Both the position numbers and the translations under genes were made by a program. A DNA stretch of 64,000 nt from a virus, in the IMG/VR virus record IMGVR_UViG_3300005617_000581; one strand, written 5' to 3'. The notes below the pieces were generated by a model that did not search any database, had not been told where the DNA came from, and saw nothing but the letters and a program-made list of their open reading frames with translations. Shown here piece by piece: positions 1-61,157 of this stretch. Every line of letters begins with the position of its first letter. The stretch's first letter is position 1.

Positions 1-66
1 TTGAACGACGCCGAGCGTAAATCCGCCGGCGAACCCCTGACAATCGATCGCCGTGTATACCACGAG

Positions 67-516
67 CTAGACTGTATCACCAGCGCCGCAGTAACGCGTA
101 CTGCAGGTCACGGCTGGATCGTCTAGGGCGCGGTGACACCAAGGACACTTGGACGAGACGCCGTCGTAGCCGTCGGCCTGGCGCTTAGCGTTGAGACGAC
201 CCTTCGTCTCGTATCGGGCAAATACCTCGCGCGCGAGCTCGACCGGATCGTCGCCGAGCGCCAGCAGCATGTTGATCCAAAAGTGCAGCACGTCGACCAG
301 CTCGCCGACGTACGCGTCGCGCTCGATGTGCCGCGACGTTGCCCACGACTTCCAGCCAACCTCGTCGAGCGCCTCACACAGTTCCATGATCGCGGCCTGC
401 TGCATCTCGCGAATGTAGACGACGCGCTCGGCGGCGAGCATCCGCTGAAAGTTACGTCCGAACGACTCGGTCTGTAGGTCGTGCTGGAGTCGGAACAGTT
501 CCTCAAACCTATCCAT
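67..516 (-). CDS. MazG-like all-alpha nucleoside triphosphate pyrophosphohydrolase (possible dCTP/dUTP-clearing enzyme) with C-terminal Cys-rich tail
   Basis: The ELCEALDEVGWKSW and EL(a)DVLHF helices match the MazG/dimeric-dUTPase EExxE and WKxW pattern. There is a C-terminal CPWC...CSTRYC segment. It is translationally coupled to the upstream gene by an ATGA overlap. Confidence 0.5.
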   Translation of the reverse strand: MDRFEELFRLQHDLQTESFGRNFQRMLAAERVVYIREMQQAAIMELCEALDEVGWKSWATSRHIERDAYVGELVDVLHFWINMLLALGDDPVELAREVFARYETKGRLNAKRQADGYDGVSSKCPWCHRALDDPAVTCSTRYCGAGDTV

Positions 517-1208
517 CAGCGTTGCGCCTCATTCTTAATGATCTCGGCGATTGCCTCGGGCGTTCCGAGGTCGCGCGAACTTACCAACACGGTTCGGTTT
601 CGACCGCCGTGCATGAACTGGGCGAGGTACGGTCCGATCGGCAGCTCGTGACCCGGCTCGACGAAGTGAATCATGCGGTTGAGCACCGAGTAGATGTTGT
701 CGATGCTGCCGACGAACGGCCCGACCCAGCACGGAACGAACAGCTCTTCGGTGTGCGGTAGTACCTTCTCGCGCCAGACGTTGTCGTCGTCGAGGAACGT
801 GTACCGCTGGGCGTCCTCGACGTTCAACATGCGGACGCCGATCGCGCCGTTGTGCACGACCCGCCGGACGTCCTCGTCGGTCGACAGGTTGTCGCCGAGC
901 AGCACCAGCACCCGATCGTCATCGGCGCGACAGGACGTTACGCCGTACAACAGCGCGTGTCCGGGTCCGCGCGGAGACGGCTGCAGGACGAAGAAGACCT
1001 CGTCGACGTCCTCTACCTCGCGCACGATGTCGATCGAATTCTCGGGCGCGACGACGACGACGATCCGCTCGGCGCGCGCCTCGCGCGCGAGCAGCACCGC
1101 ACGGCGTACCAGCGAGACGCCGTCAATCTTAAGCAGTGGCTTACCATACGGACCGGTGATCGACTCGATACGCCGGCCGCGACCTGCGGCGAGAACTACC
1201 GCATCCAT
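516..1208 (-). CDS. Nucleotidyltransferase (sugar-phosphate / MobA-GlmU-like NTP-transferase fold)
   Basis: The N-terminus VVLAAGRGRR...GKPLL is the classic G-rich NTP-transferase signature. Length is 230 aa. Confidence 0.55.
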   Translation of the reverse strand: MDAVVLAAGRGRRIESITGPYGKPLLKIDGVSLVRRAVLLAREARAERIVVVVAPENSIDIVREVEDVDEVFFVLQPSPRGPGHALLYGVTSCRADDDRVLVLLGDNLSTDEDVRRVVHNGAIGVRMLNVEDAQRYTFLDDDNVWREKVLPHTEELFVPCWVGPFVGSIDNIYSVLNRMIHFVEPGHELPIGPYLAQFMHGGRNRTVLVSSRDLGTPEAIAEIIKNEAQR

Positions 1209-2074
1209 CGTTCGACCTCCTCGACCAGCTTGTTAACGAGGAGCTGGAGCTCGTGTCGAATAGGTTCGGCCGGCGCCGTTCGGACGCCGCGCGCGGTATG
1301 GATCGCCGCGAAGTAGACCGCGGCGCGCGCCTCGTTCAGGTCGAAGCCGCGGTCGTCGTCCAGCCACATGTTGAGTACCTCGGCCACGGCGACCCGCGGT
1401 GGGTGGACGTCCCACTTGTCGGCGACCTCGCGCCGGTTGTAGCGGATCCGCTCGTAGCCGACGGCGGTCTGGATGACGCGGCCGACGTCGAGAGCCTCCA
1501 CGTCCGGCAACGCGGAGCAGCTCGGAATCGGATCGATCAGAACCCACGAGGGCTTGGCGAACGGCAGGTCCTGACGATAGAGCAGGTTCTCGGCGATCGG
1601 ATCGCCGTGGGTCAACGCGCGTTGTAGCGACGGCCAGTCGATCGACGCGGCGTAGCGGTCCAGCGTCTTGCGGTGCTGCGCGAGTCCGGCCTGGTTGAGC
1701 AGCTTAGCGACGTAGCGCCGGTGCTGGCGCGCGTTGTAGTAGTTGAGAGCCTCGAACCCCATTCCACGCAACCCAAATCCCCACAGTCCGACCTGAAGGT
1801 TGTCGAGAATGATCTGACAGATGTTCGCCCGGTCGCAGATCAGGTCTTCCAGCTCGGGCTGCTTCAGCAGCTCCATCTCGTAGCCGTTCGCTAGCACCCG
1901 ATAGACCTGCGGAAGAGACGCAACAGTGGTGTGGTTGCGCAGCCAGATTCCCTGGTCGCGGACGCGCGTTCCGGTACGCGGGGCGTCGAACTTCTTAACC
2001 TCGTCCTTCTCGAACACCAGCGTGGCGCCCGAGGAACCGGTCTGGATGTTAGTCTTGATGTCGTCGTTACTCAC
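1196..2074 (-). CDS. APH/choline-kinase-fold phosphotransferase (possible anomeric sugar kinase)
   Basis: It has the Brenner motif HGDPIAENLL and a downstream VLIDPIP (D-x-D/E) typical of aminoglycoside/choline/hexosamine kinase-like kinases. GTG start with a 13-nt overlap with the next gene. Confidence 0.5.
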   Translation of the reverse strand: MSNDDIKTNIQTGSSGATLVFEKDEVKKFDAPRTGTRVRDQGIWLRNHTTVASLPQVYRVLANGYEMELLKQPELEDLICDRANICQIILDNLQVGLWGFGLRGMGFEALNYYNARQHRRYVAKLLNQAGLAQHRKTLDRYAASIDWPSLQRALTHGDPIAENLLYRQDLPFAKPSWVLIDPIPSCSALPDVEALDVGRVIQTAVGYERIRYNRREVADKWDVHPPRVAVAEVLNMWLDDDRGFDLNEARAAVYFAAIHTARGVRTAPAEPIRHELQLLVNKLVEEVERWMR

Positions 2075-3429
2075 AGTCCCAACCTCGACTCGATGATCTT
2101 AAGGTAGTCCAGCGCGGCGATCGCGTCCTCGAAGTGTCGCCGCTGAAGCGTTACGGCCCACGTCCAGACCTCGCGGTCCACGTGAACCATGCGCACGCGC
2201 CGCGCGAGCTCCTTCGGCGACTTGACGCGCAGGAAGTCGTGTAGCTCCGTCGGCGCGCCGTTCAGGACGTGGTCCTGGTCGTCGTAGCGCGGGTGAAAGA
2301 AGCAGACGACGCCGAGGGCGAACGCCTCCCACGGCTTAGCGGTCGCCCAGCCCGAACCGGACGCGGGGGTCGTCAGCGTGCTGTGAACCGTGTGCATCGT
2401 CCCGGGGTAGTCGGCGAGCGGCAGCGGCTCGATCTCGCGGTTCAGGATCCGCCGCGACGCCTCGGACCAGTGCCCGTGCACCCACGCCGGATCCAGGGGG
2501 AGCACGTACTCCTGGAGCGCGCGCAGCCGCGACCTCTGCGGGGCGACCTCGCGCTTGGTCTCGTTGACGACGATGCCGAACGCGGCGCGGCCGTCCCAGG
2601 TATCGTCGAACTGCAGCGTATCGCCGAACGGCGTTCCAGGAATAAGTGACGAGATCTCGAGCCGCGCGTAGACGTTGCGTACCCGCGATTCCCAGATGCC
2701 GTCGTAGCTCTTCGCGGGAAACGCGGCGAGCAGTTCGTCGCCGCGGCCGTAGCGCTCGTGCTTCGCCGTCGAGGTGAACGTGTACTGCGACAGTACCGGG
2801 TGGCACCACGCCCACGCGGCGTCGCGGAACTTGACGTAGTTGCGCGCGTCCGAGTTGAGCAGCACCTCCTCGCGCGCGATCGGGTCGACGTCGCGCCACG
2901 CGTTGACGTTGTGCAGCAGGTAGCCCGCGTACAGCGTCGCCCAGTCGTACGGCTTCGTCAGCGTCGACCGGTCGCGGATCGACGGCAGCGGCGAGTTCGA
3001 CGTGCCGTGCTGGCCGATCCACATGACGATCTCGTCGAGCGACGCGAACGTATCGCGTGTCAGATCCACCATGAGCTGACGAACCCTTAGGTGATCGTCG
3101 ATCGTCAGGTTCGAGTAGTTCAGCCCGTCGGCGTTGAGCCGTTGACGCAGGATCGGCGCCCAGGTGCGCCACGGATTGAGGACGTTCTCGGGTAGACCGA
3201 CATCGGTTGGCTCCTCGCCCGAGTTGCGGCCCACTAGGAGGAAGTCGACGTCCGGGTGTCGTTCGGCGAGCAGCTTGAGGGTCGGTACCATCTCGTGATC
3301 GCCGCCGAGGCTGCCGCAGTTGGCGAGCTGAAGCGGCATGCTGCGGCCGAGCTTCGCGTAGCCGATGATCTTCCGTCTCACTTTCGTCTCCCTCTCGTGG
3401 TGACCGAGGAGGACTGCGTCCTCGGCCAC
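2071..3429 (-). CDS. Hypothetical 452-aa protein; possible Rossmann/GT-B-like transferase acting with the adjacent kinase and nucleotidyltransferase
   Basis: The N-terminus KIIGYAKLGRS...DVDFLLVGRNSGEE is a Rossmann-like beta-alpha-beta. It sits at the head of the nucleotide-modification gene block. No decisive motif was found. Confidence 0.3.
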   Translation of the reverse strand: MAEDAVLLGHHERETKVRRKIIGYAKLGRSMPLQLANCGSLGGDHEMVPTLKLLAERHPDVDFLLVGRNSGEEPTDVGLPENVLNPWRTWAPILRQRLNADGLNYSNLTIDDHLRVRQLMVDLTRDTFASLDEIVMWIGQHGTSNSPLPSIRDRSTLTKPYDWATLYAGYLLHNVNAWRDVDPIAREEVLLNSDARNYVKFRDAAWAWCHPVLSQYTFTSTAKHERYGRGDELLAAFPAKSYDGIWESRVRNVYARLEISSLIPGTPFGDTLQFDDTWDGRAAFGIVVNETKREVAPQRSRLRALQEYVLPLDPAWVHGHWSEASRRILNREIEPLPLADYPGTMHTVHSTLTTPASGSGWATAKPWEAFALGVVCFFHPRYDDQDHVLNGAPTELHDFLRVKSPKELARRVRMVHVDREVWTWAVTLQRRHFEDAIAALDYLKIIESRLGL

Positions 3430-3469
3430 CGTACCAGTTCTAACCTACGCCCCGCAAGTCGGTCTTGAT

Positions 3470-4024
3470 CTAGCCGACCGGCGTCGTGAACGGGTCGTCC
3501 GGCGCTGGAACCGACGGCTGACGTCCGAGCTCGGCCGCGACCGCGGGCGGCGTAGAAGGCGACGACGGGCCGGCTGCGGCGGGCACGACGAATCCGCCGA
3601 GCTGCCCGCCGGAGCCTCCGCCGGGACCTCCGAGGGCCTTCTTGTACTCCTTGATGTTCTCCCGCATGGTGCCGTTCCACTCGCGCGGTTCGACGACGGC
3701 GACGGCCCGGCGGCCCAGCAGCGCCTGCGCAATGACGTCCAGCGGGGCGTTCGAGTTGCGCTGGAAGAAGCCGCTGTCCAGGCCGAAGATCGCCATCTGG
3801 CCGAAGAAGATCCGCATCGCGTTGCCGTTCTCGGCCGAGATGACGAACTGGTCGAACAGCGTCTGTCCCGCCTTCGGACCGGACTCGACGCGGTGCTTAA
3901 CCTTGATCATGGGTTTGTCGTTGGACGACTTCGTGGCGACGGATTCGACGACCACGACGGTGAACTCACCCTCGAGGATCGTTGTGGCGTCCTTGTGGAG
4001 GCTCGCCCAGTTGATGGTCGACAA
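3470..4024 (-). CDS. DUF669-like phage single-strand DNA-binding protein candidate with Gly/Pro-rich C-terminal tail
   Basis: 184 aa lying directly downstream of the Sak4-like ATPase, which is a conserved phage pairing. It has a low-complexity GGPGGGSGGQLGG tail. Confidence 0.4.
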   Translation of the reverse strand: MSTINWASLHKDATTILEGEFTVVVVESVATKSSNDKPMIKVKHRVESGPKAGQTLFDQFVISAENGNAMRIFFGQMAIFGLDSGFFQRNSNAPLDVIAQALLGRRAVAVVEPREWNGTMRENIKEYKKALGGPGGGSGGQLGGFVVPAAAGPSSPSTPPAVAAELGRQPSVPAPDDPFTTPVG

Positions 4025-4034
4025 CGCGTACTCC

Positions 4035-4802
4035 TTACCGGTTGGGATAGATCGCGGCCAGCATGTCCGCGATGTTCGGTTCCTGGATGATGTCGGGAAG
4101 CCGCCCCTGAACGCGCTCGCCGACGACGTACGCCGGGTTGATACCGGCGCCGATCAACAGCTTCTTGTGCTTGACGTTTCCCTCCGAGCCCGCCTCGACC
4201 TCGGTGTAGAGGACGCCGCAGATGTCGACCCAGTACGGAAGCGTGTCGCGGATGCCGCCCTGCATGAACGGCCGCCACTGGCCGTTGTGCATCGCCGTCT
4301 CGCAGTTGAAGACGACGCACCGGATCGTGTTCGGCTGGAGCGTCAGGTCGCGGAAGCCGCGGATCAAGCCGTCCATCTGGTCGAGCAGCTGTCCCCAGCG
4401 CTGCTGGTCCATCAGCGCCGAACCGGTCCGGATGTTGGCCTTGCACCGGCGCTGGATCTCGGTGATCGAGTCGAGCACGATCGAGACGAAGTCGTTGTCG
4501 TACTGGGTCAGCGCCTGAAAGACCGCGACCATCGTCTGCCACGAGTCGACGTGTACGCGCGCGACGTCCCACGTGCCGTCGTAGCGTGGGATCGGCTCGG
4601 TGACCGGGTTCCACGTGATCTTTCGGAGCGGCTTCGTGCCGCGGTAGCCGATGTGATCTATGAACTTCCAGCTACCCTCCGCGTCGATGACGAGGATCGG
4701 TGCCGGCGCGGTCGACGACAGCGTCGACTTACCCTCCTTGGACGCCGAGTGGATCAACATCGAGACGACGTGATCCTTATCGATGACGCGCTCGTACGTC
4801 AC
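4035..4802 (-). CDS. RecA-like NTPase (AAA_24 / Sak4-like recombination ATPase)
   Basis: Walker A is SASKEGKST, followed by a RecA-like core. Position between the SSB-like gene and the Cas4-like nuclease fits this call. Confidence 0.55.
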   Translation of the reverse strand: MTYERVIDKDHVVSMLIHSASKEGKSTLSSTAPAPILVIDAEGSWKFIDHIGYRGTKPLRKITWNPVTEPIPRYDGTWDVARVHVDSWQTMVAVFQALTQYDNDFVSIVLDSITEIQRRCKANIRTGSALMDQQRWGQLLDQMDGLIRGFRDLTLQPNTIRCVVFNCETAMHNGQWRPFMQGGIRDTLPYWVDICGVLYTEVEAGSEGNVKHKKLLIGAGINPAYVVGERVQGRLPDIIQEPNIADMLAAIYPNR

Positions 4803-5785
4803 TCAACCTCCCTCTCGATTCGATCCCCGTAGTAGTCCAGGGGATCGTGCCTTACGTACATGTCCTGGATCGCGTCCTCGACGCGTGAGCCGTCGTCGAA
4901 CATGCGGCAGATCTTAAAGAAGTCACACTTCCACACACAGTCGCGCGACGGGCGCGACGGCACGACGTCCTGCGACGGCTGGCCGGGACCCGTGGATAGG
5001 AACAGCGACGCCTGGACGATCTGGCCGATCGTCCGGTCGAGCTGGCGCCGGTAATTGGCAACCTCGTGTTGGTTGTGGTCGATCGCGACGCGCCCGTAGA
5101 ACGGGGGCCGCGCCTTGTCGGTTCGCTTCACCTTGCGCAGCATGTTGTACAGCGCGCCGGTCGCGCGCTCGAGCGGATCGCCCGGCTGCATCCAGTCGAT
5201 CAGGTGGTAGTGCAGCATCTGCTGGTTGATGCCGAGCGTCGCGTCCGTCAGCGACTGGACGCTCTTATGGTCGATGAAGCCGCGGCGTCCAGCTTCTGGG
5301 TAGAAGATCTTAGCGTCGAGCTTGCCGATGTAGCGAACCTGCGCGCCGTACATCTTAAGCAGCGGCGACTCGACGTAGGTCTCGGCCGCGACTACCTCGA
5401 ACGCCTGGTCGGCGCCCGTCTCCTCGATCCAGTCGAGGTACCCCTCGATCATCGCGCGCTCGAGGTCGAACACCGAGTGGAGCTTAAGTACCTCCTGCGA
5501 CCACCTGAAGTGGTCCTCGTCGTCCCGCGGTTCGTCCAGTCCGGTCTGGATCGCGTCCCGCTGCTGCGCGACGCGCAGCGCCGTCAGCGCGCCGGTCGTC
5601 TGCGCGGGATCGTAGTGCGACGCCAGCGCAACGTGAATCCGCGTACCGGTCGAGCGCGCGTCGGACGTCGTCGTCGCGCGCGGCTTAAGTGCTCTATGCC
5701 AGCCCAGCCACCACCTACGCGGGCAGTCCTTGAACGTCTGGACCTCGGAGTTCGACGCGAGAAATACACCGTCGACGAACGTCAC
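4799..5785 (-). CDS. Cas4/RecB-family PD-(D/E)xK exonuclease with Fe-S cysteine cluster
   Basis: There is an N-terminal CPRRWW, an IDHK (D-x-K) motif, and a C-terminal CVWKCDFFKIC triad, giving the four-Cys Cas4-type arrangement. Confidence 0.6.
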   Translation of the reverse strand: MTFVDGVFLASNSEVQTFKDCPRRWWLGWHRALKPRATTTSDARSTGTRIHVALASHYDPAQTTGALTALRVAQQRDAIQTGLDEPRDDEDHFRWSQEVLKLHSVFDLERAMIEGYLDWIEETGADQAFEVVAAETYVESPLLKMYGAQVRYIGKLDAKIFYPEAGRRGFIDHKSVQSLTDATLGINQQMLHYHLIDWMQPGDPLERATGALYNMLRKVKRTDKARPPFYGRVAIDHNQHEVANYRRQLDRTIGQIVQASLFLSTGPGQPSQDVVPSRPSRDCVWKCDFFKICRMFDDGSRVEDAIQDMYVRHDPLDYYGDRIEREVE

Positions 5786-7662
5786 TTCACATCTCCTAGG
5801 TTGCTATCCATGATTCGCTGTTCCTCGTCGTCGAGCTCGTGCGTCGACAGTCCCGCCGCGGCGAGCCGCGCGCGGTCGCGGGTAATCTCCTCGAGGCGCA
5901 TCGCCTTCTCCCACAGGCGACCGACCTGCGTCTCCTCGACCGTGCCCCGCGCCACGAGGTCCATGACCTGGATCGACTCGTGAACCTCGGATCCGATGCG
6001 GTGTACCCGGTCCTCGGCCTGGACGTTGTCGACCATTGACCACGAACGTTGCATGAACACTATCAGGTCTGCGGCCGTCATCGTCAGTCCCGTACCACCC
6101 GCCTTCAGGGTAAACAGCAGCACCGACAGCTGTCCCGACTGAAAGCTGTTCAGGATCGCGTTGCGTTCGTACGTCGACTGACCGCCGGTGATTAGGCCGT
6201 GGTGAACGTGCAGCTTCTCGAGGCGCGCGGCCGCGAGTTCGACCAGCTGGCGGTGCTCCGCGGCCGCGACGAACGGCCGCCCGGCGCGTTCCTCGACGAT
6301 CTCGACGAGCGCGTCGACCTTCGGCGACGGGTCGCACATGCGGTAGCCGTCGGGTGTCGAGTGCATGGAGGCGCTGGAGAACTGTAGTAGCCGGATCTGC
6401 GCCACGAGGTCGTCCTTGGCAACCATCAGGGAGCCGTCCTCGAGGCGCGTCACCAGCGACTCCTCGATCTCGCGGTAGGCCTTGAACTGCTTCGGCGTCA
6501 GCTCGACGTGGCGCGTCGTCCGGACCTTGGGCGGCAGCTGCGGCAGTACGATCTTCTTGAGCATCCGGCGAAACCTCGGATCGAGGATCTGATAGAACTC
6601 GTCCTTGTGCTCCGGGTTGACGCCCTTAACCTCGAGTCCGCCGTATGTTCCCCACGCGAGTAGGCAGTAGCGGTCGACGAACGCGGACCTACGCGGGTAC
6701 TCGACCGGGTCGACGAAGTGCCCGATCGACCACAGCTCGGACGGGTCGTTGGCGATCGGCGTCCCGGTCAGCGCGAGCCGCCGCGTCACGGTTTTACCGT
6801 GGCCGACGGCCCAGCACGCGCGCGTCTGCTTCGCGTGGGGATCCTTGATCCGGTGCGCCTCGTCGACGACGACCGTCCTAAACGCGATGTCGTTGAGCTG
6901 GCGCGGGTGCACCTCGCAGCGCGCCGCGGTGACGCGCGGATCCTGTCCCCCGCAGTCCGGACACGACGCGAGTCGGATCGAGCCGAACGGCGCGAGCCGC
7001 GAGTGGCCACGTACCGCCTCGATGTTGATGATCACCAGCGCGGAGTCGTCCTGCGCGGCCTCCTTGAGTATCTTCGCGCGCTCGGCGGCCGAGCCGTTGA
7101 TGACGTACGACCGGGCCCACGGGAACCACTTCCACGCCTCGTCGCGCCAGTTGAACTTCGTCGAGTTGGGGCAGATCACCAGCGCGGGAAGCGCGTCCTC
7201 GAGTTCGTTGAGCAGCGTCAGTACCTGGATCGTCTTACCCGTGCCCATCTCGTCGGCGAGCAGCGCCGAACCGGCGACGTGCAGCCAGTCGACGCCGACG
7301 CGCTGGAACGGGTAGAGCCTTCCGACGTCGCGGTCCGTCTGGCTGAGCTCGCGCAGCAGCAGCGACGGCTCAACGCGATCGCGCCGGTGCGCGACGATCA
7401 ACGCGCGCAGTCCGTCGCCGTACGTAATCGTCGGAAACATGTAGCGCAGCTGGACGCACGACGCCCAGGACGGCGACAGCGTCCACGCCTTGGTGGTCGA
7501 GTTCCAGCGCGCGCCGGGAATGCGCTTAATCTGCTCCTTCTCGTTCCACAGCGTCTGGACGACGATCCGGTCTTCGACGAGCTCGGCGTGGGGCACCGGG
7601 TGAACCTCTCGTTCTCTAGATTCCGACGATGCTGGCGAACGTCTCGGGAAACAGCGAGGCAA
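5782..7662 (-). CDS. SNF2-family DNA helicase/translocase with inserted zinc finger
   Basis: Motif I is LADEMGTGKT, motif II is DEAHRIKD, and there is an inserted CPDCGG...CEVH zinc finger. The C-terminal helicase domain has QSTYERN. Confidence 0.7.
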   Translation of the reverse strand: MPRCFPRRSPASSESREREVHPVPHAELVEDRIVVQTLWNEKEQIKRIPGARWNSTTKAWTLSPSWASCVQLRYMFPTITYGDGLRALIVAHRRDRVEPSLLLRELSQTDRDVGRLYPFQRVGVDWLHVAGSALLADEMGTGKTIQVLTLLNELEDALPALVICPNSTKFNWRDEAWKWFPWARSYVINGSAAERAKILKEAAQDDSALVIINIEAVRGHSRLAPFGSIRLASCPDCGGQDPRVTAARCEVHPRQLNDIAFRTVVVDEAHRIKDPHAKQTRACWAVGHGKTVTRRLALTGTPIANDPSELWSIGHFVDPVEYPRRSAFVDRYCLLAWGTYGGLEVKGVNPEHKDEFYQILDPRFRRMLKKIVLPQLPPKVRTTRHVELTPKQFKAYREIEESLVTRLEDGSLMVAKDDLVAQIRLLQFSSASMHSTPDGYRMCDPSPKVDALVEIVEERAGRPFVAAAEHRQLVELAAARLEKLHVHHGLITGGQSTYERNAILNSFQSGQLSVLLFTLKAGGTGLTMTAADLIVFMQRSWSMVDNVQAEDRVHRIGSEVHESIQVMDLVARGTVEETQVGRLWEKAMRLEEITRDRARLAAAGLSTHELDDEEQRIMDSNLGDVK

Positions 7663-8080
7663 GCGCGAGCAGCACGTGGCGCTGCGCGGCGTTCGCGTGC
7701 TGGTCGCGGGACGCGACGTACCAGCCCAGGTCGCGCAGCCGTTGATTAGACGCGATCCTTACCGCGGGACCCGGGTTCTGGTGCACCAGCTGCGCGCCGA
7801 GTTCGTTCGCGATCGCGTCGACCTGGCCGAGTACCTCCAGCGCGTGAGGCTGACGCGTCTTACGCGATCCCTGGACGAACCTCTCGATCGCGAAACACGT
7901 CGGACCCTGGGGTGTCGAACGCGGCGGCCAGTGGTGGTCGTCGAGCATGCGCCGGATCATCGTCCCGACGGACGACGCCTGGACCTCGGAGGTTTCCGGT
8001 CGGACGCAGTCGTCGCACCAGAGCGCGAGGCCGGTGACCTTGCCCGGATCGACGCCGAAGATAATCACTCGTCGACCCAC
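7616..8080 (-). CDS. RuvC-like Holliday junction resolvase
   Basis: The N-terminus IFGVDPGKVTGLALW matches the RuvC GIDPG-TG motif. Length is 154 aa. Confidence 0.65.
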   Translation of the reverse strand: MGRRVIIFGVDPGKVTGLALWCDDCVRPETSEVQASSVGTMIRRMLDDHHWPPRSTPQGPTCFAIERFVQGSRKTRQPHALEVLGQVDAIANELGAQLVHQNPGPAVRIASNQRLRDLGWYVASRDQHANAAQRHVLLALASLFPETFASIVGI

Positions 8081-9840
8081 TCCTTCTTGTCGCCCCAGCG
8101 TTCGCCGTACGAGACCGACGCGGTGATCGGCACCTCAAACTGCTGGTCGTCGTTCATCACCTGGCGCAGCGCGTGGACGGCGTCGGGAACGTCCTCGTTC
8201 GGTACCTCGAGGAAGATTTCGTCGTGGACCGGCGCGACCATGTAGTCGCCGAGTCCCGCGTCGGCGAGCTCGATCTGCTTACGCTTGAACAGCGCCGCGG
8301 CCCAGCCCTGGATCAGGTAGTTCACGAGCGCGTACTCCTTGCCGGGATCGGCCGGGTGCCGCCGGTCCGTCAGCGGGCAGACCGCGTAGGCGACTCCCTC
8401 CTCGTCGCGCCGTCGGACCGAGTCGCTAAAGACCTGCTGCGCGAACTTCTCGATGCCCGGGTATGCCGCGTTGAGTCCGTCGTTGACGTAGCGCATCTGG
8501 TCGTATGAGACGCCGGCCGTCGCGGCCTGGCGCGCGACACCCGCGCCGTAGATCTTCGCGTACATGGCGTTCTTCGTCGGCTGGCGCCGCGGGTCGGACT
8601 TGACCAGCGACGGATCGGAGAAGATGTTGCGCGCCACGGTGACGAAGAAGTCCTCAGGCGCCCGAAACGCGGCGACGAGTCCAGGATCCCGCGACATGAT
8701 CGCGAGGCCGCGCATCTCGATCTGGTCGAAGTCCGCCATCAGCAGCGTGTGGCCGGGCCGGGCGCGCACGCAGTTGCGGACGACCGTCGCCGCCGGGTTG
8801 TGCTCGTTTTTACGTGGTAGGTTCTGCAGGTTCGGGTGGTCCATCGAGCAGCGGCCGGTCCGCGTTCCGAGCGTGTTGATCGACGGGTGAACGCAGCCGT
8901 CGGACTGCGTGTGTTCCAGGTAGAACTTGAGGTACGTCGACGCCATCTTCTGGTACTGGCGCCGCCGTAGGACGGCCTGCGCGAGAGGGTGGTCGATTCC
9001 GTCGAGGACGCCCTTGTCCAGCGAGACGGCGCCGGACTTGGTGGCCTTGGAAAACTGGAAGCCCGCGTCCGCGAGGACGCGGATCACCTCGGCGTTGGAC
9101 CCGGGCTTGATGCCGTACTCGGCGGCGCACCAGCGCTCGACGCGCTCGGCGTAGTCGTTGAACAGCCCGTAGTTGTCGCGTACGTAGTCGACGTCGATCG
9201 GCGCGCCGTGCGCCTCCATCCGCTGCGCGACCCACTGGTACTCGTTCTCGAGTTCGTACGCGCGCGGCGCCTGGTCGAGCACCTTCGGTAGGTGGATGTC
9301 GCTGAGCCGCCGCGTCAGCACCGTGTCGAGCGCGCCGTAGAACCAGTACCCGGGATAGTCGGACGGTATCGTCGCCCACGTCCAGCCGTTCTCGGACATG
9401 GCGCGCTCGAGGACGCCCTGCGACGCGCGCGCCCGCGGGTCGACGTGCCGCGCGGCCTGGTTCTTGAGGGCGCGGGACTGCGTCGGTTCGAGGACGTGCG
9501 CCATGACGCCGACGTCACGAATCCGCGACCGGTCGACGCGGACCCCGGCCTGGTCGAGGAACGACCAGTCGAACTTAGCATTCATCATGTCGACCGGCCC
9601 GACGTGCTCGGCGACGGCTCCGGCGAACAACCCGGACCAGCGTCGCCAGGGCAGCGCCCAGCCGTCGTCGGCGTCGCCGATCTGGACGAGGCGGACGTAG
9701 TCGCCCGAGTGCCAGTAGAAGCCGGTCGTCTCGGTGTCGATCCCCAGCGGCTCGCCACGGCGCGCGCCGATCCACTCGGCGAACGCGCGGACGTCGTCGA
9801 GCGACTCGACGAGGTGCATCCGCGTGTCGTCCAGCGTCAC
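8065..9840 (-). CDS. polA: DNA polymerase I (family A) with 3'-5' exonuclease domain
   Basis: Exo I motif is LGIDTETTG. Pol motif A is DFDQIEMRGLA, motif B is RRQPTKNAMYAKIYGAG, and motif C is VHDEIFLEV. Confidence 0.85.
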   Translation of the reverse strand: MTLDDTRMHLVESLDDVRAFAEWIGARRGEPLGIDTETTGFYWHSGDYVRLVQIGDADDGWALPWRRWSGLFAGAVAEHVGPVDMMNAKFDWSFLDQAGVRVDRSRIRDVGVMAHVLEPTQSRALKNQAARHVDPRARASQGVLERAMSENGWTWATIPSDYPGYWFYGALDTVLTRRLSDIHLPKVLDQAPRAYELENEYQWVAQRMEAHGAPIDVDYVRDNYGLFNDYAERVERWCAAEYGIKPGSNAEVIRVLADAGFQFSKATKSGAVSLDKGVLDGIDHPLAQAVLRRRQYQKMASTYLKFYLEHTQSDGCVHPSINTLGTRTGRCSMDHPNLQNLPRKNEHNPAATVVRNCVRARPGHTLLMADFDQIEMRGLAIMSRDPGLVAAFRAPEDFFVTVARNIFSDPSLVKSDPRRQPTKNAMYAKIYGAGVARQAATAGVSYDQMRYVNDGLNAAYPGIEKFAQQVFSDSVRRRDEEGVAYAVCPLTDRRHPADPGKEYALVNYLIQGWAAALFKRKQIELADAGLGDYMVAPVHDEIFLEVPNEDVPDAVHALRQVMNDDQQFEVPITASVSYGERWGDKKEWVDE

Positions 9841-10343
9841 CGGTTGCTCCTGTCGAGGAATATGTCGGTGGACAGATCCTTATTGACGACGACGACGAGC
9901 CCGCAGTCGCGCATGAACCGGTACGAGTCGTCGCTGCGCCGGTGTTCGTGTTCCCGCTGCGAGTCCACGACGACGAACTGAAGGCCGGAGTTGGCGATGA
10001 GTTTAGCACAGGGCGTGCAGACGTGACTCGTGACGTAGAGCGTTCCACCCATGCGCAGCGTGCGGTCGCTCATGGTGATCGCGTTAGCCTCGGCGTGAAG
10101 CGCCGGGCAGTCCGAATAGTCGTTCGCCACCGGTTCGCCGTGGTTGCGACCGCGGGTGCACCAGTTGCCACAGCGCGCGTCCGCGTGGTCGAAGCCGCGT
10201 GGCGGTCCGTTGTATCCCTCGCCGATGACCTTACCTTCGACGTCGGTGATCAGCGCGCCGACCTGGTCGCGTTCGCATAGGCTGCGCTTCCCAAGGTCGC
10301 GCGCCATGGCGATGCGTACCTGGTGCCACGACGGTCGGGTCAC
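9837..10343 (-). CDS. dCMP deaminase
   Basis: Zinc-ligand motifs CPALHAEANAI (HAE) and CTPCAKLI (PCxxC) are both present. Confidence 0.8.
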   Translation of the reverse strand: MTRPSWHQVRIAMARDLGKRSLCERDQVGALITDVEGKVIGEGYNGPPRGFDHADARCGNWCTRGRNHGEPVANDYSDCPALHAEANAITMSDRTLRMGGTLYVTSHVCTPCAKLIANSGLQFVVVDSQREHEHRRSDDSYRFMRDCGLVVVVNKDLSTDIFLDRSNR

Positions 10344-11191
10344 TTCGCGACCACCAGCTCGGCGAACGTGTCCAGGTACCAGCGTTCGCTGTCCGTGGGC
10401 AGCGCGACGCTGCCGTTGCGGATCGCGCGGGCGCGCTGGCGGACGTCGTCGAAGTTGTCGCCGCCGTTGCCGATCCCGAAGTCGGGATAGCGTTCCTCGG
10501 TCGCGAGTCCCACCCGGTCAGTGACCTGGTACGACAGGTTGACGTGCTCGTGGTAGAGGTGCATCGACCACGCGGTGTGTGTGTACGTCCCGGGAAGGAC
10601 GCCGAGAACGTTGGCCAGCGTCAGCTGCAGCTGCGTGAACTGGAACATGTCGTACGGCAGGCCCAGCCACGCGTCGTTGGAGCGCATGGTGACGCGCATG
10701 TTCAGCGAGTCGTGGCGCGGACCGAGGCTGAAGCCGAGCGCGACGGTGCACGGGTAGTCGGCCTTGTTGCGGTAGTGGTTGTCCAGGTGGGAATCCCACA
10801 GCGTCACGACCGCTTGGCGACTCCACCAGTCGTCGCGCAGCTTGTCGACGACGAAGCCGAGCTGGTCGGCGACGCGCTCGCCGTAGGCGCCCCAGAAGTG
10901 GCCGTTGGGTTCGAGAAACTTCTTGAAGCTCGGGGCGATCCCGACCAGCCAGTCGGGATCGGAAAACCCGCCGATCAGCTGGATCGCCTCGGCGGCCGCG
11001 ATGCGCGCGTTGAGTCCCCGGCCGCAGCCGGTCGGCAGCGCGAACAGCGGCGACTCGACGTGGATCGTGTAGTCGTCCAGGTTGTACGTCAGTCCGTTGC
11101 GGGACGGGCGGCGCTGGCCGCGGCGGCGGAGGTCCTCGAGGACCTGGGGGTAGACGTCGCGACAGTAGCGACCGTCGATGAGTCGGGCCAC
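10340..11191 (-). CDS. Thymidylate synthase homologue (ThyA fold), possibly a pyrimidine hydroxymethylase/methylase with altered base specificity
   Basis: The catalytic Cys context YPCTVALGF is present. The RSNDAWLGLPYDMFQF block aligns to ThyA R(S)xD..LGxPFN, but carries Asp (PYD) where ThyA has the uracil-specifying Asn. Confidence 0.7.
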   Translation of the reverse strand: MARLIDGRYCRDVYPQVLEDLRRRGQRRPSRNGLTYNLDDYTIHVESPLFALPTGCGRGLNARIAAAEAIQLIGGFSDPDWLVGIAPSFKKFLEPNGHFWGAYGERVADQLGFVVDKLRDDWWSRQAVVTLWDSHLDNHYRNKADYPCTVALGFSLGPRHDSLNMRVTMRSNDAWLGLPYDMFQFTQLQLTLANVLGVLPGTYTHTAWSMHLYHEHVNLSYQVTDRVGLATEERYPDFGIGNGGDNFDDVRQRARAIRNGSVALPTDSERWYLDTFAELVVAK

Positions 11192-12159
11192 GTTCCTAGG
11201 TCCTCCTGCTTAGTAAGCGCGAGCGCGATCAGGTTACCGTACTCGCCGCGCTTAAGATGATGAAAGCGCCGGACGTACTGCGGGTGAGGTACGACGCCGT
11301 GGGGCACCGCGAGCTGCGCGAGTCGTCGCTGCGCGTTGCGGCCGAGCGCGACGGTACGCGGGCGTCCGAGCGAATCCCACAGCCGGCGCGGATCGTCGAC
11401 GTCGCACGCGTTGGCGAGCCCGTAGCGGATCGTCGTTCCCGCGTCGGCGAGCGCGCCGCGCAGGAAGTGTCCCGACGTACCCGGGAACGGCAGGAACGCC
11501 GGATCCGTGTTGGCGCGCGCCTCACGGGACGACGGGTCGACGTGGCGCAGCTCGTGGCGGACGTCGCCGAACAGCAGGAACTCTGGGTGCCGAGGTCCCG
11601 AGTACGTCGTCGTCACCAGGTCGACGACCGTGGACTCGCGGACGTGCGCCAACTTGACGACGCGTTCGACCTCCGAGTTCAGCGGCGACGACCACTGGTA
11701 GAACTGCTGCAGCTGGAACGAGCGCAGCCGCACGTCGCGGTAGGCCCTGTCGACCAGCGGCAGCTCGTCGAGCAGCGCGTCGACGTCCTCGCCGCGCTCG
11801 GCGTAGACGCGCCGGTACGTCGCCAGGTCGCCGTAGACGTAGACCACGAGGGCGCCGAGCCGGGCGAGCAGGGACTCGATGGCCCACCACGCGGCGTCGT
11901 CCAGCTGCGAGACGCGACCGCGCAGGGCGGGATAGACGCGCTCCCCCCAGTGCCAGCGGTCGAGGATTAGGTGCGGCGACCTGCCGGGTCGATACCCCGA
12001 GATCGGCCGGAGGTACTCGTCCAGTGGGTGGCCGACCGGGGGTCCCTTGTGCATCCGGACGACGCCGCGCGCGTGGTCGCGTTCGTCGAGAAATTCTTCC
12101 AGTGCCTCGGCGAGCGTCGTCTTACCGCCGCCGTCCGGGCCCTCTAGGATTATGAGCAC
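11089..12159 (-). CDS. Thymidylate-kinase-like P-loop kinase fused to a divergent uracil-DNA-glycosylase-superfamily domain
   Basis: The N-terminus LIILEGPDGGGKTTLAEAL is the dTMP-kinase signature. C-terminal LPFPGTSGHFL and HPQYVRRF resemble UDG family-4 motifs (PFVGxAGxLL, HPSxxxR). There is an approx 100-nt overlap with the downstream ThyA-like gene through a low-complexity tail. Confidence 0.5.
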   Translation of the reverse strand: MLIILEGPDGGGKTTLAEALEEFLDERDHARGVVRMHKGPPVGHPLDEYLRPISGYRPGRSPHLILDRWHWGERVYPALRGRVSQLDDAAWWAIESLLARLGALVVYVYGDLATYRRVYAERGEDVDALLDELPLVDRAYRDVRLRSFQLQQFYQWSSPLNSEVERVVKLAHVRESTVVDLVTTTYSGPRHPEFLLFGDVRHELRHVDPSSREARANTDPAFLPFPGTSGHFLRGALADAGTTIRYGLANACDVDDPRRLWDSLGRPRTVALGRNAQRRLAQLAVPHGVVPHPQYVRRFHHLKRGEYGNLIALALTKQEDLGTWPDSSTVATVATSTPRSSRTSAAAASAARPATD

Positions 12160-12683
12160 CGGTGCCTCATCGCCGGGTGGAGTACCTCGTCGTCGCCGCG
12201 CGCGAGCTCGACGAGCCGCTCGAGCCAGCCGACCCAGTAGATGGACTCGGTGGGTCGCCCGGGTAGTTCACCCTCCGGCGACGGCTCGCTGGTAAGCGCG
12301 TGGTCGCGCGCCGCGCGCAGCCGGTACGTCCGATGGAGGTAGCCGGTCTGCTCGGCCGTCGAGCGCTCGCGGCCGAACCAGTACGACTGGACCTGGTGCC
12401 GCCCGCGGTAGCGCGAACGGCGCCCCCAGTTGCGCGCTGCGCCCGCGACGTCGGCGAGTCCTAGGGCTAGCCACGACGTCGCGTCGCGGGTCGTAGCGAC
12501 GGCGCGACGCGCGCCTGCGGCGATCCGGCGCCGGACCTCGGGAAGCTCGGCGACGAGCTGACGCGTCGGCGTCGGCTGCGCGTAGATCGGGACGTCGTCG
12601 ATAGAAACGAGGAGGTCGCCGTCCCCGGTGGACTCGGGGACGGCGACCTCGGATTGGATTGGCAGTGCTGCGACTGTGGTCAC
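12150..12683 (-). CDS. Hypothetical protein
   Basis: 177-aa ORF in the leftward operon with a 10-nt overlap with the downstream gene. No recognisable motif. Confidence 0.45.
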   Translation of the reverse strand: MTTVAALPIQSEVAVPESTGDGDLLVSIDDVPIYAQPTPTRQLVAELPEVRRRIAAGARRAVATTRDATSWLALGLADVAGAARNWGRRSRYRGRHQVQSYWFGRERSTAEQTGYLHRTYRLRAARDHALTSEPSPEGELPGRPTESIYWVGWLERLVELARGDDEVLHPAMRHRCS

Positions 12684-12738
12684 TTGGGGGCCCTTCGGTT
12701 GAACTGGAGCAACCTAGGTATCCTACAACCGACCGATG

Positions 12739-13800
12739 CTATTGCATCAGCGTTCGCAGCGTCTCGGACAGGGCTTCGTACTTGGCGACCTTGGCGAGCA
12801 TCTCGTCCGAGACCGTCGGCGAATCGGCGATCTTCTTGAGTTCGCCGCGCAGCGCGTCGAACTGGCGCTGGACGTTGGCCGTCGTGACGATGAGCGTCGC
12901 GAACGCGTCGGCGAGCTGGTCGAGAATGCCGTAGACGGCCGCGAGGTGCGCGGACAGCGGCGTCCCGGTCGCTGCTGGGTGCTGTTGGGTAGGTGGTGTC
13001 ACGGTAAAGTTTATCCTCGTCTCTCGTTCTCGCTTGAGCTGTTCCTCGAGTTCCTGGCGCGCGGCCTCGGCGGCGCGGGCCGCGCGAACGGCGATCATCC
13101 GGGTGGAGTGAATCTTCAGGTGCGCCCGGATCGAACCCGGGTTGAATCCCCACGTCGTGCACTCGGGCGCGTTCGGCGAGTTGCACATGAACACGGTCCG
13201 GCCGTCCTCGAGGAGCGTCTCGAGGACGGTGCTCGTCGTGTACGGTCCGTGCGCGTTGCCGAACGGCATGACGGCGGGCTGCGCCGCGATCACCCGCGAA
13301 CCGTCGATCAGCGTCCGCGACGGCGCGCAGAACAGCGATACGTACGGACGGTCCGGGCGCGCGTCGTGCGCACCCGGGTCGACCAGCGCCATCCGGCGGG
13401 GTTGCTGGTGCTGCTGTGCGTCCGTCTCGGACGCGGCCGGTTCGTCGGGTTCGGTCCGCGAGCCGTCGCCTCCCCCGTTCGCGATCATCGCGGCGTTGAT
13501 CTCGTCGATGCGCGCCTGGTTCGCCGCGCGGTCGGCCGCGATCTTCAGCAGTCGGTTGTTCTCGCGTACCCGCGCCGTGGCGGCCTCCAGCTTGGCCAGT
13601 CCGTGTCGGTTCGCCTCGGCGATCGCGTTCTTTTCGACGTAGCCGCGGCCCGTCGGCGTCGACGCGAACGTAAACAGCAGCTTCGCGCGCTGGTCGAGCA
13701 CCTTGTAGTGTCCCGAGTTCGAGTAGACGACCTGCCAGCCGACGTCCTCGCAGCGTTCCTTGAGCTTGAGCGGCCACTCGCGGCCGGTGCTAACTCCCAC
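12739..13800 (-). CDS. Hypothetical protein with coiled-coil regions
   Basis: 353-aa ORF containing a C2H2-like FMCNSPNAPECTTWG..H..H segment and K/E-rich helical stretches. Confidence 0.45.
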   Translation of the reverse strand: MGVSTGREWPLKLKERCEDVGWQVVYSNSGHYKVLDQRAKLLFTFASTPTGRGYVEKNAIAEANRHGLAKLEAATARVRENNRLLKIAADRAANQARIDEINAAMIANGGGDGSRTEPDEPAASETDAQQHQQPRRMALVDPGAHDARPDRPYVSLFCAPSRTLIDGSRVIAAQPAVMPFGNAHGPYTTSTVLETLLEDGRTVFMCNSPNAPECTTWGFNPGSIRAHLKIHSTRMIAVRAARAAEAARQELEEQLKRERETRINFTVTPPTQQHPAATGTPLSAHLAAVYGILDQLADAFATLIVTTANVQRQFDALRGELKKIADSPTVSDEMLAKVAKYEALSETLRTLMQ

Positions 13801-60065: not shown

Positions 60066-60073
60066 GAGGACGA

Positions 60074-61155: not shown

Positions 61156-61157
61156 CG

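Follow-up and report, generated by a model that had tools for sequence, protein, structure and literature searches.

A leftward operon with a probable glycosyl-5-hydroxymethylcytosine pathway in an uncultured actinophage

A leftward operon in an uncultured phage probably replaces the cytosine of the phage DNA with glycosylated 5-hydroxymethylcytosine (hmC), following a pre-replicative route like that of T4, judging from sequence comparison and a structure model. It occupies positions 67-12159 on the minus strand of IMGVR_UViG_3300005617_000581, whose 64,000 analysed nucleotides are called the window below. The phage is roughly 65-70 kb, PolA-bearing and of an undescribed actinophage lineage. 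The preliminary description had read the operon as canonical dNTP clearance, formation of a 5-substituted pyrimidine by a ThyA homologue, phosphorylation, and sugar activation for transfer to DNA; every test run agreed with this core reading. The module contains the following features:

1..63, minus strand: C5-cytosine DNA methyltransferase, N-terminal 21 codons, cut by the window edge
67..516, minus strand: all-alpha NTP pyrophosphatase (MazG / dimeric-dUTPase / T4 gp56 superfamily)
516..1208, minus strand: sugar-1-phosphate nucleotidyltransferase
1196..2074, minus strand: protein-kinase-like (APH-fold) sugar kinase, AfhE-kinase-like, 292 aa
2071..3429, minus strand: GT-B glycosyltransferase, T4 beta-glucosyltransferase-like, 452 aa
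3470..9840, minus strand: replication and recombination genes within the operon
9837..10343, minus strand: dCMP deaminase (T4 cd analogue)
10340..11191, minus strand: predicted ThyA-fold dCMP hydroxymethylase, T4 gp42-type
11089..12159, minus strand: P-loop dNMP kinase (residues 1-175) with a UDG-superfamily fold domain (about 180-320)

All seven enzyme genes described earlier as one co-directional leftward set were found in place, and their order is kept in about 70 independent metagenomic contigs, so the juxtaposition is non-accidental. GC3 was 0.78-0.92 and GC2 low across the seven, so that all appear to be genuine coding sequences. Adjacent genes share 1-16 nt or are separated by gaps of 10-40 nt; the exceptions are two overlaps of 47 and 103 nt, which probably reflect miscalled gene ends. 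No promoter-like or terminator-like signals above chance were found within 1-12 kb, which fits a single operon. The genes at 3470..9840 encode a DUF669 SSB, an AAA_24 recombinase-like ATPase, a PD-(D/E)XK nuclease, an SNF2 helicase, a putative RuvC-like resolvase and a family A DNA polymerase (PolA), assigned by Pfam except for the resolvase, and in an order matching relatives. The resolvase candidate has no Pfam match and owes its name to its position and to how the syntenic gene is annotated in phages DSL-LC01 and GodonK. This replication set, lying between the seven enzymes, was missing from the earlier gene list.

The pyrophosphatase exceeded the Pfam cutoff for PF08761 dUTPase_2 (E 1e-11) and matched phrog_18650 (dUTPase / NTP-PPase, E 4e-31), with a local similarity to T4 gp56 in BLASTP (43% over 46 aa, E 8e-10). 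It is proposed as a dCTPase/dUTPase that would turn dCTP into dCMP, and probably dUTP into its monophosphate too. The deaminase matched PF00383 (E 3e-14) and phrog_174 (E 7e-33) and shows the HAE and CxxC zinc motifs; like T4 cd, it would convert part of the dCMP to dUMP for the host thymidylate synthase.

The ThyA homologue matched PF00303 Thymidylat_synt (E 4e-21), and its top PDB sequence match was the MilA CMP hydroxymethylase. The altered specificity residue noticed previously is an Asp at the position of E. coli N177. All ten active-site positions compared between 143 and 177 (D143, C146, T147, M165, R166, S167, N168, D169, G173 and D177) were identical with T4 gp42, and over the full comparison of 20 ThyA positions 12 agreed; positions 143, 146, 169 and 177 were invariant in 28/28 relatives. 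The protein differs from E. coli ThyA at L143 and N177, from the ZC01 dUMP hydroxymethylase at N177, and from the RB69 5hodCMP synthase at N169, and it has neither a thymidylate synthase signature nor that of a dUMP hydroxymethylase or a 5-hydroxy-dCMP synthase. The diagnostic residues of this family have been defined and experimentally validated (PMC13326640). Because the signature is identical to that of T4 gp42, the modified base is predicted to be cytosine and not thymine, and the enzyme would hydroxymethylate dCMP at C5; the earlier claim of a replaced pyrimidine was thus largely right and is here sharpened.

Another group at cytosine C5, either 5-methyl-dCMP (XP12-type) or 5-hydroxy-dCMP (RB69-type), with the sugar joined to 5hoC through an ether or no sugar at all, seems quite improbable to us. 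All three products are made by ThyA homologues that have N177D, the RGP-like and epimerase genes of relatives recall UDP-arabinose chemistry, and the sugar kinase is homologous to that of the RB69 arabinose pathway. Against this, D169 is kept while all validated 5hodCMP synthases are D169N, and position 143 is Asp, versus the bulky hydrophobic residue tied to methyl products.

The gene at 11089..12159 carries the P-loop GPDGGGKT and a weak Pfam match to Tmk, and fold search returned an NMP kinase with a C-terminal UDG-fold domain, just as first proposed; its low-complexity tail overlaps the ThyA-like gene. In the hmC pathway the kinase domain would produce hm-dCDP, host NDP kinase would produce hm-dCTP, and the phage PolA would incorporate it. 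The suggested resemblance to 5-hmdU kinase and aGPT-Pplase pathways did not hold: the kinase is Tmk/dNMP-like, tblastn with it found no 5-HMUDK-carrying phage, and the aGPT-Pplase domain was absent in every Pfam scan. Two features of this protein count against hmC. The kinase is of thymidylate-kinase type and no homologue of T4 gp1, and a uracil-type base would be its more natural substrate; the UDG-fold domain, by our motif reading, appears to keep an invariant Asn where UDGs read uracil.

Both features would suit the replacement of thymine by hmU. In that case hm-dUMP would come either from deamination of hm-dCMP by the phage deaminase or from direct action of the ThyA homologue on dUMP; the Tmk-type kinase would then phosphorylate it, the MazG-like enzyme would remove dTTP/dUTP, and the transferase would attach a sugar to hmU (an SPO1/SP8-like logic with glycosylation added). 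Classical hmU phages have a dCMP deaminase, a ThyA homologue, an NTP pyrophosphatase and a dNMP kinase, a set that fits the operon equally, and the pyrophosphatase belongs to the dUTPase_2 family. We nevertheless consider hmU improbable, since experiments have established Asp in place of N177 as the residue that determines dCMP use, the full signature matches gp42, and ZC01, an M6-like phage, retains Asn in its annotated dUMP hydroxymethylase. The DNA of Stenotrophomonas phage AXL3 also argues against it: this phage has the same block of NTP-PPase, kinase-UDG, D143-D169-D177 ThyA and deaminase, and none of the 35 tested restriction enzymes whose sites contain G/C cuts its DNA, the AATT and TTAA cutters being the only ones that do (AXL3 paper). 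By analogy, this resistance gives an experimental hint from a relative for a modified cytosine pathway. Avoidance of 4-bp palindromes was absent in the window, which is weakly consistent with modified DNA.

That the deaminase, ThyA, Tmk and dUTPase do no more than raise the thymidylate supply, beside unrelated sugar genes, is highly improbable, although the homologous genes in GodonK, AXL3 and DSL-LC01 are publicly annotated in this sense and the AXL3 paper reads them so. L143 and N177, both thymidylate-synthase-defining, are missing in every ThyA member including that of the window, which speaks against the ordinary dTTP enzymes that the preliminary description had named as the refuting outcome. 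AXL3 encodes ThyX for real dTMP synthesis besides having restriction-resistant DNA, and the BGT-like transferase would have no role.

The module continues beyond the left window edge. Bases 1-63 were 18/21 identical, by tblastn, with the PF00145 methylase of one relative (L002), in which the catalytic motifs are intact, and in 53/53 relatives with enough sequence the gene immediately downstream of the MazG-like gene is a homologue. This C5 methylase, apparently active, closes the conserved part of the module; it and the UDG fusion are the two unexplained features. If every C were hmC the methylase would be substrate-less, which counts against a full hmC reading. The completeness of replacement and the roles of the methylase and the UDG-fold domain are conjectural.

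For sugar activation, the nucleotidyltransferase exceeded the Pfam cutoffs of PF12804 (NTP_transf_3, E 3e-15) and PF00483 (NTP_transferase, E 1e-9). Its top PDB matches were HddC heptose-1-P guanylyltransferase (best), RmlA and GlmU; no NCBIfam equivalog level was reached, and BLASTP revealed no significant similarity to RB69 gp53. The neighbouring kinase has no Pfam match, while one homologue is tagged PF01636 APH. Its motifs H156-G-D-x4-N163 and D181 are unchanged across 29 homologues, and its family profile aligned with RB69 gp52 in hhalign with probability 92.9% over 182 columns. These comparisons make the kinase a homologue of the AfhE-type sugar kinase of RB69, partnered by the nucleotidyltransferase; the kinase would phosphorylate a sugar or sugar phosphate at C1, from which the nucleotidyltransferase would make the NDP-sugar donor. 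The proposed kinase-plus-nucleotidyltransferase activation thus matches the AfhE-type NDP-sugar route of RB69/HY126 (PMC13326640). Counting against glycosyl-hmC, no SIS isomerase adjoins the kinase, and the sole HAD phosphatase, PNKP-like, is 22 kb away. The nearest precedents for the sugar would be heptose- or pentose-type routes.

The 452-aa protein, described before as a Rossmann-type unknown, was confirmed as a gene and is refined here to a GT-B transferase. It has no Pfam match; a confident structure model is GT-B, and a DNA glucosyltransferase, T4 beta-glucosyltransferase (BGT), stands clearly ahead of its other structural matches. At sequence level the match is weak (hhalign 41.8%, 66 columns), and an equivalent of the catalytic Asp100 could not be mapped; both points count against the glycosyl-hmC reading. 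We propose from the model that it is a DNA hmC glycosyltransferase, which would move the sugar onto the hydroxymethyl group of hmC in duplex DNA. In all relatives the gene lies within the replication/nucleotide operon, flanked by the SSB and dCTPase-like genes, and wherever a relative's flank extends to the ThyA gene, that gene encodes the D143/D169/D177 form. This position, the co-occurrence and the structural match make it rather unlikely that hmC stays unglycosylated and the GT-B, kinase and nucleotidyltransferase serve to glycosylate proteins of the virion, as happens in mycobacteriophages, polymers of the host wall or some small molecule. A second glycosyltransferase/methyltransferase cluster at 57.5-63 kb could be the real NDP-sugar consumer, which counts against glycosyl-hmC.

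In the roughly 70 contigs the core is conserved and the slot between transferase and MazG-like gene is variable. It holds a kinase with a nucleotidyltransferase, an RGP-like gene with or without an epimerase, an epimerase alone, a nucleotidyltransferase-kinase fusion with an SIS isomerase (L057/58/60), or a UDP-Galp mutase (DSL-LC01). Such swapping of NDP-sugar genes is expected for a sugar donor serving the adjacent transferase.

Among known systems, AXL3 gp27-gp30 and Gordonia phage GodonK gp189-194 (annotated thymidylate synthase / kinase / dCMP deaminase) have a homologous ThyA with D143/D169/D177 and an adjacent deaminase, and AXL3 also the kinase-UDG fusion; unlike the window, neither has a BGT-like transferase or sugar cassette beside these genes.

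The T-even glucosyl-hmC pathway (gp56, gp42, gp1, cd, alpha/beta-glucosyltransferases) shares its step logic with the window, and the likeness to the T4 hmC route noted at first is borne out by the gp42 signature, the gp56-superfamily pyrophosphatase, the dCMP deaminase and the transferase. In contrast to T4, the kinase is Tmk-like and fused to a UDG fold, not gp1-like; the phage would make its own sugar donor, whereas T4 uses host UDP-glucose; the transferase is 100 aa longer with marginal sequence similarity; the parts of the window that were scanned yielded neither a phage thymidylate synthase nor a DHFR; the module includes a C5 DNA methylase; and the phage is a PolA actinophage, not a T4-like myovirus.

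The arabinosyl-5-hydroxycytosine pathway of RB69 / DLP3 / HY126 (5hodCMP synthase, AfhE NTase-kinase, AfhF HAD phosphatase, A5P isomerase, DNA arabinosyltransferases; PMC13326640) shares with the window the N177D ThyA homologue and a phage-encoded APH-fold sugar 1-kinase, homologous to gp52, with a nucleotidyltransferase. The window differs in having these two as separate genes, in lacking the SIS isomerase and an adjacent HAD phosphatase, and in keeping D169, which predicts hmC rather than 5hoC as the base.

Contig 53 of metavirome 5mYOX subclass III encodes a HAD-APH bifunctional enzyme, a cytidylyltransferase and a BGT-like GT-B, and heptosyl-5hmC was made experimentally by this APH-like kinase, cytidylyltransferase and GT-B trio (bioRxiv 10.1101/2023.12.21.572611). 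The window has the same trio of kinase, nucleotidyltransferase and transferase, with the heptose-1-P guanylyltransferase nearest to its nucleotidyltransferase. The same study reported ThyS + GT-B + dCMP deaminase/epimerase/APH neighbourhoods from IMG/VR, and the actinophage MAG DSL-LC01 was deposited, un-discussed, with the same layout; novelty for an actinobacteriophage was therefore overstated, while we found no paper describing glycosyl-hmC in one. No dioxygenase was found in the window, though the C5 methylase is conserved: contig 53 makes hmC post-replication by C5 methylase and TET-like dioxygenase, whereas the window would use the pre-replicative ThyA route. The kind of system is thus familiar, and the actinophage lineage that carries it is undescribed.

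Over its left 15 kb the window carries one uninterrupted series of minus-strand genes with a strong GC3 (0.78-0.92) and a low GC2. The genes at its left end are given here in the order of transcription.

Genes of the leftward module
11089-12159, minus strand: kinase-UDG fusion
10340-11191, minus strand: ThyA homologue
9837-10343, minus strand: dCMP deaminase
8065-9840, minus strand: family A DNA polymerase
7616-8080, minus strand: putative RuvC-like resolvase (synteny only)
5782-7662, minus strand: SNF2 helicase
4799-5785, minus strand: PD-(D/E)XK nuclease
4035-4802, minus strand: AAA_24 ATPase
3470-4024, minus strand: DUF669 SSB-like protein
2071-3429, minus strand: 452-aa protein, putative transferase
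1196-2074, minus strand: 292-aa kinase
516-1208, minus strand: 230-aa nucleotidyltransferase
67-516, minus strand: 149-aa MazG-like protein
1-63, minus strand: C5 DNA methyltransferase, first 21 codons, truncated by the window edge

Gene-by-gene assignment bore out the seven enzymes that the preliminary description had claimed for this arm, each at its coordinates. We consider it probable that they form a T4-like pathway, in which 5-hydroxymethylcytosine (hmC) would be made before replication and, once in DNA, would be glycosylated with an NDP-sugar of the phage's own making.

Adjacent genes of the arm share 1-16 nt or have gaps of 10-40 nt between them, with two exceptions: a 47-nt overlap at 7616-7662, where the SNF2 helicase ORF meets that of the putative resolvase, and a 103-nt overlap (11089-11191, minus strand) between the kinase-UDG and ThyA-like ORFs. 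These two are probably a miscalled start and a late stop. The last 35 or so residues of the kinase-UDG ORF form a low-confidence Ser/Thr/Ala-rich tail, similar tails of variable length were found in many relatives, and the tail may reflect a late stop and not functional sequence. The resolvase had no Pfam match; its name is taken from where the gene lies and from how the syntenic gene is annotated in the phages DSL-LC01 and GodonK. A consensus scan revealed no promoter- or terminator-like signals above chance within 1-12 kb. At 12612-12650 (minus strand), within the predicted 5' end of a 177-aa ORF (12150-12683), there is a GC-rich inverted repeat, perfect over 16 bp, with a T-containing tail after it. 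This may be a terminator or a hairpin with a regulatory role; the ORF would then begin further downstream.

The base to be modified is indicated by the ThyA homologue (PF00303, E 4e-21), of which a Cys is aligned with the catalytic C146. In a sequence search of solved structures, the CMP 5-hydroxymethylase MilA outranked every thymidylate synthase. The protein was aligned with E. coli ThyA, T4 gp42, RB69 gp48, the annotated dUMP hydroxymethylase of the M6-like phage ZC01 and 28 non-identical relatives.

Residues at three ThyA positions (E. coli numbering)
Window protein: 143 D, 169 D, 177 D
T4 gp42: 143 D, 169 D, 177 D
E. coli ThyA: 143 L, 169 D, 177 N
ZC01 dUMP hydroxymethylase: 143 D, 169 D, 177 N
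RB69 gp48: 143 E, 169 N, 177 D

An acidic residue at position 143 admits water, which gives a hydroxymethyl product. In the recent experimental study that established these positions as diagnostic (PMC13326640), the N177D exchange changes the substrate from dUMP to dCMP, L143D/E accompanies hydroxymethyl and not methyl products, and D169N marks the flavin-dependent 5-hydroxy-dCMP synthases. The window protein contains D143, C146, T147, M165, R166, S167, N168, D169, G173 and D177, and all ten are identical to T4 gp42, as are 12 of the 20 ThyA positions compared in all. D143, C146, D169 and D177 were kept in every one of the 28 relatives. The altered specificity residue proposed earlier is found, as Asp in place of Asn177, in the window and in all 28 of them. 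This gp42-identical signature predicts 5-hydroxymethyl-dCMP as the product.

Two other assignments of this enzyme were rejected. A thymidylate synthase ThyA does not fit, as Leu143 and Asn177 are both replaced by Asp, and the window protein did not reach the cutoff of the NCBIfam ThyA equivalog; that the genes serve ordinary dTTP synthesis is very improbable. A 5-hydroxy-dCMP synthase of the RB69 gp48 type was discarded because the window and all relatives have Asp169 where gp48 has Asn. That cytosine carries another C5 group in place of hydroxymethyl has, in our estimate, little likelihood.

The D143/D169/D177 signature was also found in genes annotated "thymidylate synthase" in three other phages, Stenotrophomonas phage AXL3, Gordonia phage GodonK and the lake MAG "Actinomycetia phage DSL-LC01".

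Genes with the dCMP-hydroxymethylase signature in other phages
7986-8870 of the GodonK locus (L079): GodonK gp192
9935-10744 of the AXL3 locus (L074): AXL3 gp28
9981-10841 of the DSL-LC01 locus (L075): "thymidylate synthase"

Judged from these residues, the label on the three genes is likely a mis-annotation, and the three phages are candidates for modified cytosine.

The remaining nucleotide branch comprises a pyrophosphatase, a deaminase and a fused kinase. The MazG-like protein matched PF08761 (dimeric-dUTPase family; 45.7 bits against a cutoff of 22.9) and showed 43% BLASTP identity over 46 residues with T4 gp56, a dCTPase/dUTPase (E 8e-10); by these similarities it belongs to the all-alpha NTP pyrophosphatase family of MazG, dimeric dUTPase and T4 gp56, in agreement with the pyrophosphohydrolase first described. 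The deaminase, in which the zinc motifs can be seen, is of the standard dCMP type. The kinase ORF has the P-loop and NMP-kinase fold of thymidylate/dNMP kinases, and its C-terminal domain shows the UDG alpha/beta fold in the predicted structure. Since sequence profiles miss UDGs (the profile of this domain matched none in PDB), the UDG assignment is one of fold level. The same fusion occurs in AXL3 gp29 and in DSL-LC01. Invariant in the family are the motifs GD.R, F222, SG, N250, D253, D255 and HPQ..RRF, and we infer that GDVRH, N250 and HPQ sit where the UDG motifs A/B and the uracil-reading Asn sit.

The kinase is Tmk-like, not gp1-like, and the UDG-fold domain seems, from its sequence, to keep the uracil-type Asn. 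Both features keep alive, with low probability, a route through hmU, the thymine-replacing counterpart of hmC. Against this route stands AXL3, whose DNA was reported to resist every one of the 35 restriction enzymes tested that have G or C in the recognition site, and to be cut by AATT and TTAA cutters only (PMC7504290); this pattern is the sole wet-lab hint for the module and points to C (or G), not T. The resemblance to 5-hmdU kinase and aGPT-Pplase pathways suggested in the preliminary description was not upheld: tblastn of the kinase matched 11 phage records, none from the Salmonella, Pseudomonas, Bacillus or Delftia phage groups with the known 5-hmdU DNA kinase pathway, and no aGPT-Pplase-type Pfam domain was found among the window ORFs scanned.

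For the predicted hmC pathway, the sugar branch would end with the 452-aa protein. Its model is confident (pLDDT 86.5, pTM 0.86) and points to a two-Rossmann GT-B fold closest to T4 beta-glucosyltransferase (BGT); among predicted viral structures, a "DNA beta-glucosyltransferase" was the second-best and the best named match (E 1.9e-18). Between the 452-aa family and BGT, hhalign gave a weak alignment (41.8% probability over 66 C-terminal columns), in which the invariant K365/E368 are aligned with R269/E272, the UDP-binding residues of BGT. Based on genomic context, we propose that the 452-aa protein moves a sugar to hmC in duplex DNA. It is unlikely that hmC is made and this transferase acts on a target other than DNA.

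The two enzymes that would supply the sugar are encoded next to the transferase. The 292-aa protein contains the invariant HGDxxxxN and a downstream Asp typical of protein-kinase-like phosphotransferases, and its family profile matched RB69 gp52 (hhalign probability 92.9%, E 3.6e-7), the kinase half of an AfhE-type enzyme that phosphorylates arabinose-5-phosphate at C1 (PMC13326640); PDB sequence and profile searches returned only a marginal protein-kinase match. The APH-fold kinase named in the preliminary description is thus supported by its motifs and by homology to the C-terminal domain of AfhE. Pfam places the 230-aa protein as a sugar-1-phosphate nucleotidyltransferase, as had been proposed, and its closest solved relatives are heptose-1-phosphate guanylyltransferase, RmlA and GlmU. 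A direct precedent comes from a metavirome contig, whose APH-like kinase, cytidylyltransferase and BGT-like GT-B enzyme were all needed to place heptose on 5hmC (bioRxiv 10.1101/2023.12.21.572611). The window differs from the AfhE architecture (fused nucleotidyltransferase-kinase, SIS isomerase and HAD phosphatase) in that kinase and nucleotidyltransferase are separate genes, and no SIS isomerase match was found in the window. The only HAD phosphatase found is the following.

25326-25808, plus strand: HAD phosphatase of polynucleotide-kinase phosphatase type (PF25109, E 1e-24)

Its best PDB matches are Pnkp1 and T4 PNK, and an AfhF-like sugar bisphosphate phosphatase was rejected as it is nearest to T4 PNK phosphatase domains. 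Because of this PNK likeness and a weak similarity to RB69 gp51 in the DxD region only, it was kept out of the pathway.

A second glycosylation cluster (57535-63063, plus strand) is located at the end of the late arm.

57535-58233, plus strand: GT2
58860-60065, plus strand: sugar C-methyltransferase, Methyltransf_13/14 domains
59969-60586, plus strand: methyltransferase
60583-61152, plus strand: GT2 (tandem, first)
61101-61745, plus strand: GT2 (tandem, second)
61966-63063, plus strand: GT4/GT1-like enzyme

Virion protein glycosylation is reported for mycobacteriophages, and by analogy this cluster probably glycosylates virion proteins; it could be an alternative consumer of the NDP-sugar.

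We gathered 69 viral-contig loci around transferase homologues. Wherever the flank reaches, a core was kept that consists of the kinase-UDG fusion, ThyA homologue, deaminase, PolA, helicase, nuclease, ATPase, SSB, transferase and MazG-like gene. The variable slot is the interval from transferase to MazG-like gene. It holds the pair of kinase and nucleotidyltransferase found in the window; an RGP/GT75-like protein, alone or with an NAD-dependent epimerase (L003, L017 and L019 included); an epimerase alone; a fused nucleotidyltransferase-kinase with SIS sugar isomerase, the AfhE architecture (L057, L058 and L060, about 11332-13433); or almost nothing. DSL-LC01 has at the same place a glycosyltransferase and a UDP-galactopyranose mutase; homology of this glycosyltransferase to the 452-aa transferase was excluded by hhalign, so by sequence the slot is conserved there and the enzyme is not. 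A fixed transferase position with shuffling NDP-sugar enzymes is expected if the sugar donor serves the transferase, and suggests that the DNA of sister phages carries different sugars.

A C5-cytosine DNA methyltransferase homologue lies directly downstream of the MazG-like gene in all 53 relatives with enough sequence; in the window its start is at 1-63 (minus strand) and it continues past the left edge. The copy in the relative L002 has the FxGxG, PPC, ESV, QRR and RE motifs of active enzymes and looks catalytically intact. With all C replaced, a C5 methylase would have no substrate, which is puzzling in a predicted hmC phage, and its retention means either incomplete replacement or another role of the enzyme. 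The methylase and the UDG-fold domain on the kinase are two strictly conserved additions to the T4-like scheme. For example, a glycosylase of the base-flipping kind could clear phage or host DNA of uracil or of unmodified or deaminated bases, and the methylase could protect cytosines escaping replacement or help to install the C5 group on DNA. That the two form a new quality-control or second-layer system, making the pathway no plain copy of T4, is a minority possibility in our estimate; with the swappable sugar slot, these extras would describe a widespread soil-actinophage lineage with mixed 5mC/glycosyl-hmC genomes.

The phage belongs to a soil actinophage lineage that is uncultured and apparently lytic. 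Megablast of window 1-12200 against GenBank phages gave no match, indicating no close cultured relative, and tblastn of the 452-aa protein against the same phages gave none either. The polymerase matched actinobacteriophages only, with Mycobacterium, Microbacterium, Arthrobacter, Rhodococcus, Gordonia and Streptomyces phages leading and DSL-LC01 on top (39% identity). The G+C content of the window is about 65%, and genes for WhiB and DUF932 proteins lie at the right end. Metagenomes contain 631 homologues of the 452-aa protein, many of them on 60-68 kb contigs. Among bacterial genomes, one per species, no true homologue turned up, so a prophage or host link is not obtainable that way; a cluster look-up yielded no names. 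PADLOC defence models matched a deaminase domain and nothing else. Four-base palindromes are not avoided in the whole window (mean O/E 1.14; GGCC 0.98, CCGG 1.09, GATC 1.09), which is weak and indirect evidence; the most depleted six-base palindromes, of those expected more than ten times, are GCCGGC (20 observed, 49 expected) and TTCGAA (4 observed, 13.5 expected). The rightward early arm encodes an RF-1 domain protein (22889-23281, plus strand; ArfB-like peptidyl-tRNA hydrolase, PF00472) and an SPFH/Band 7 protein (26775-27647, plus strand), both unusual cargo for a phage. A 1008-aa Prim-Pol/D5_N/DUF5906 primase-helicase ORF (14496-17522, plus strand), called from its first start codon, overlaps a divergent 157-aa ORF (14421-14894, minus strand); the real start is probably near 15.1 kb, leaving a divergent promoter region there.

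Phages use hypermodified cytosine as a major counter-defence, and it also stands in the way of sequencing chemistry, restriction cloning and CRISPR tools. If the glycosyl-hmC pathway is true, a large soil actinophage group, so far uncultured and known from hundreds of contigs, would have glycosyl-hmC in its DNA with interchangeable sugars, some cultured SEA-PHAGES isolates with the same signature in their "thymidylate synthase", such as GodonK, would carry at least hmC, and T-even-type chemistry would extend to Gram-positive, high-GC hosts. A common mis-annotation would be corrected, and new DNA glycosyltransferases and NDP-sugar cassettes would become available for biotechnology. Two questions would follow: what job a UDG-fold domain has when joined to a dNMP kinase, and what reason an hmC phage has for keeping a C5 methylase. 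The arrangement had been thought undescribed in an actinobacteriophage; this stands in so far as we found no description of such a system in the actinobacteriophage literature, where the hypermodification reports found concern thymidine systems only. However, the kind of system is already known from T-even phages, RB69/HY126 and metavirome clusters, and neighbourhoods of ThyS, GT-B and APH/epimerase genes have already been surveyed computationally.
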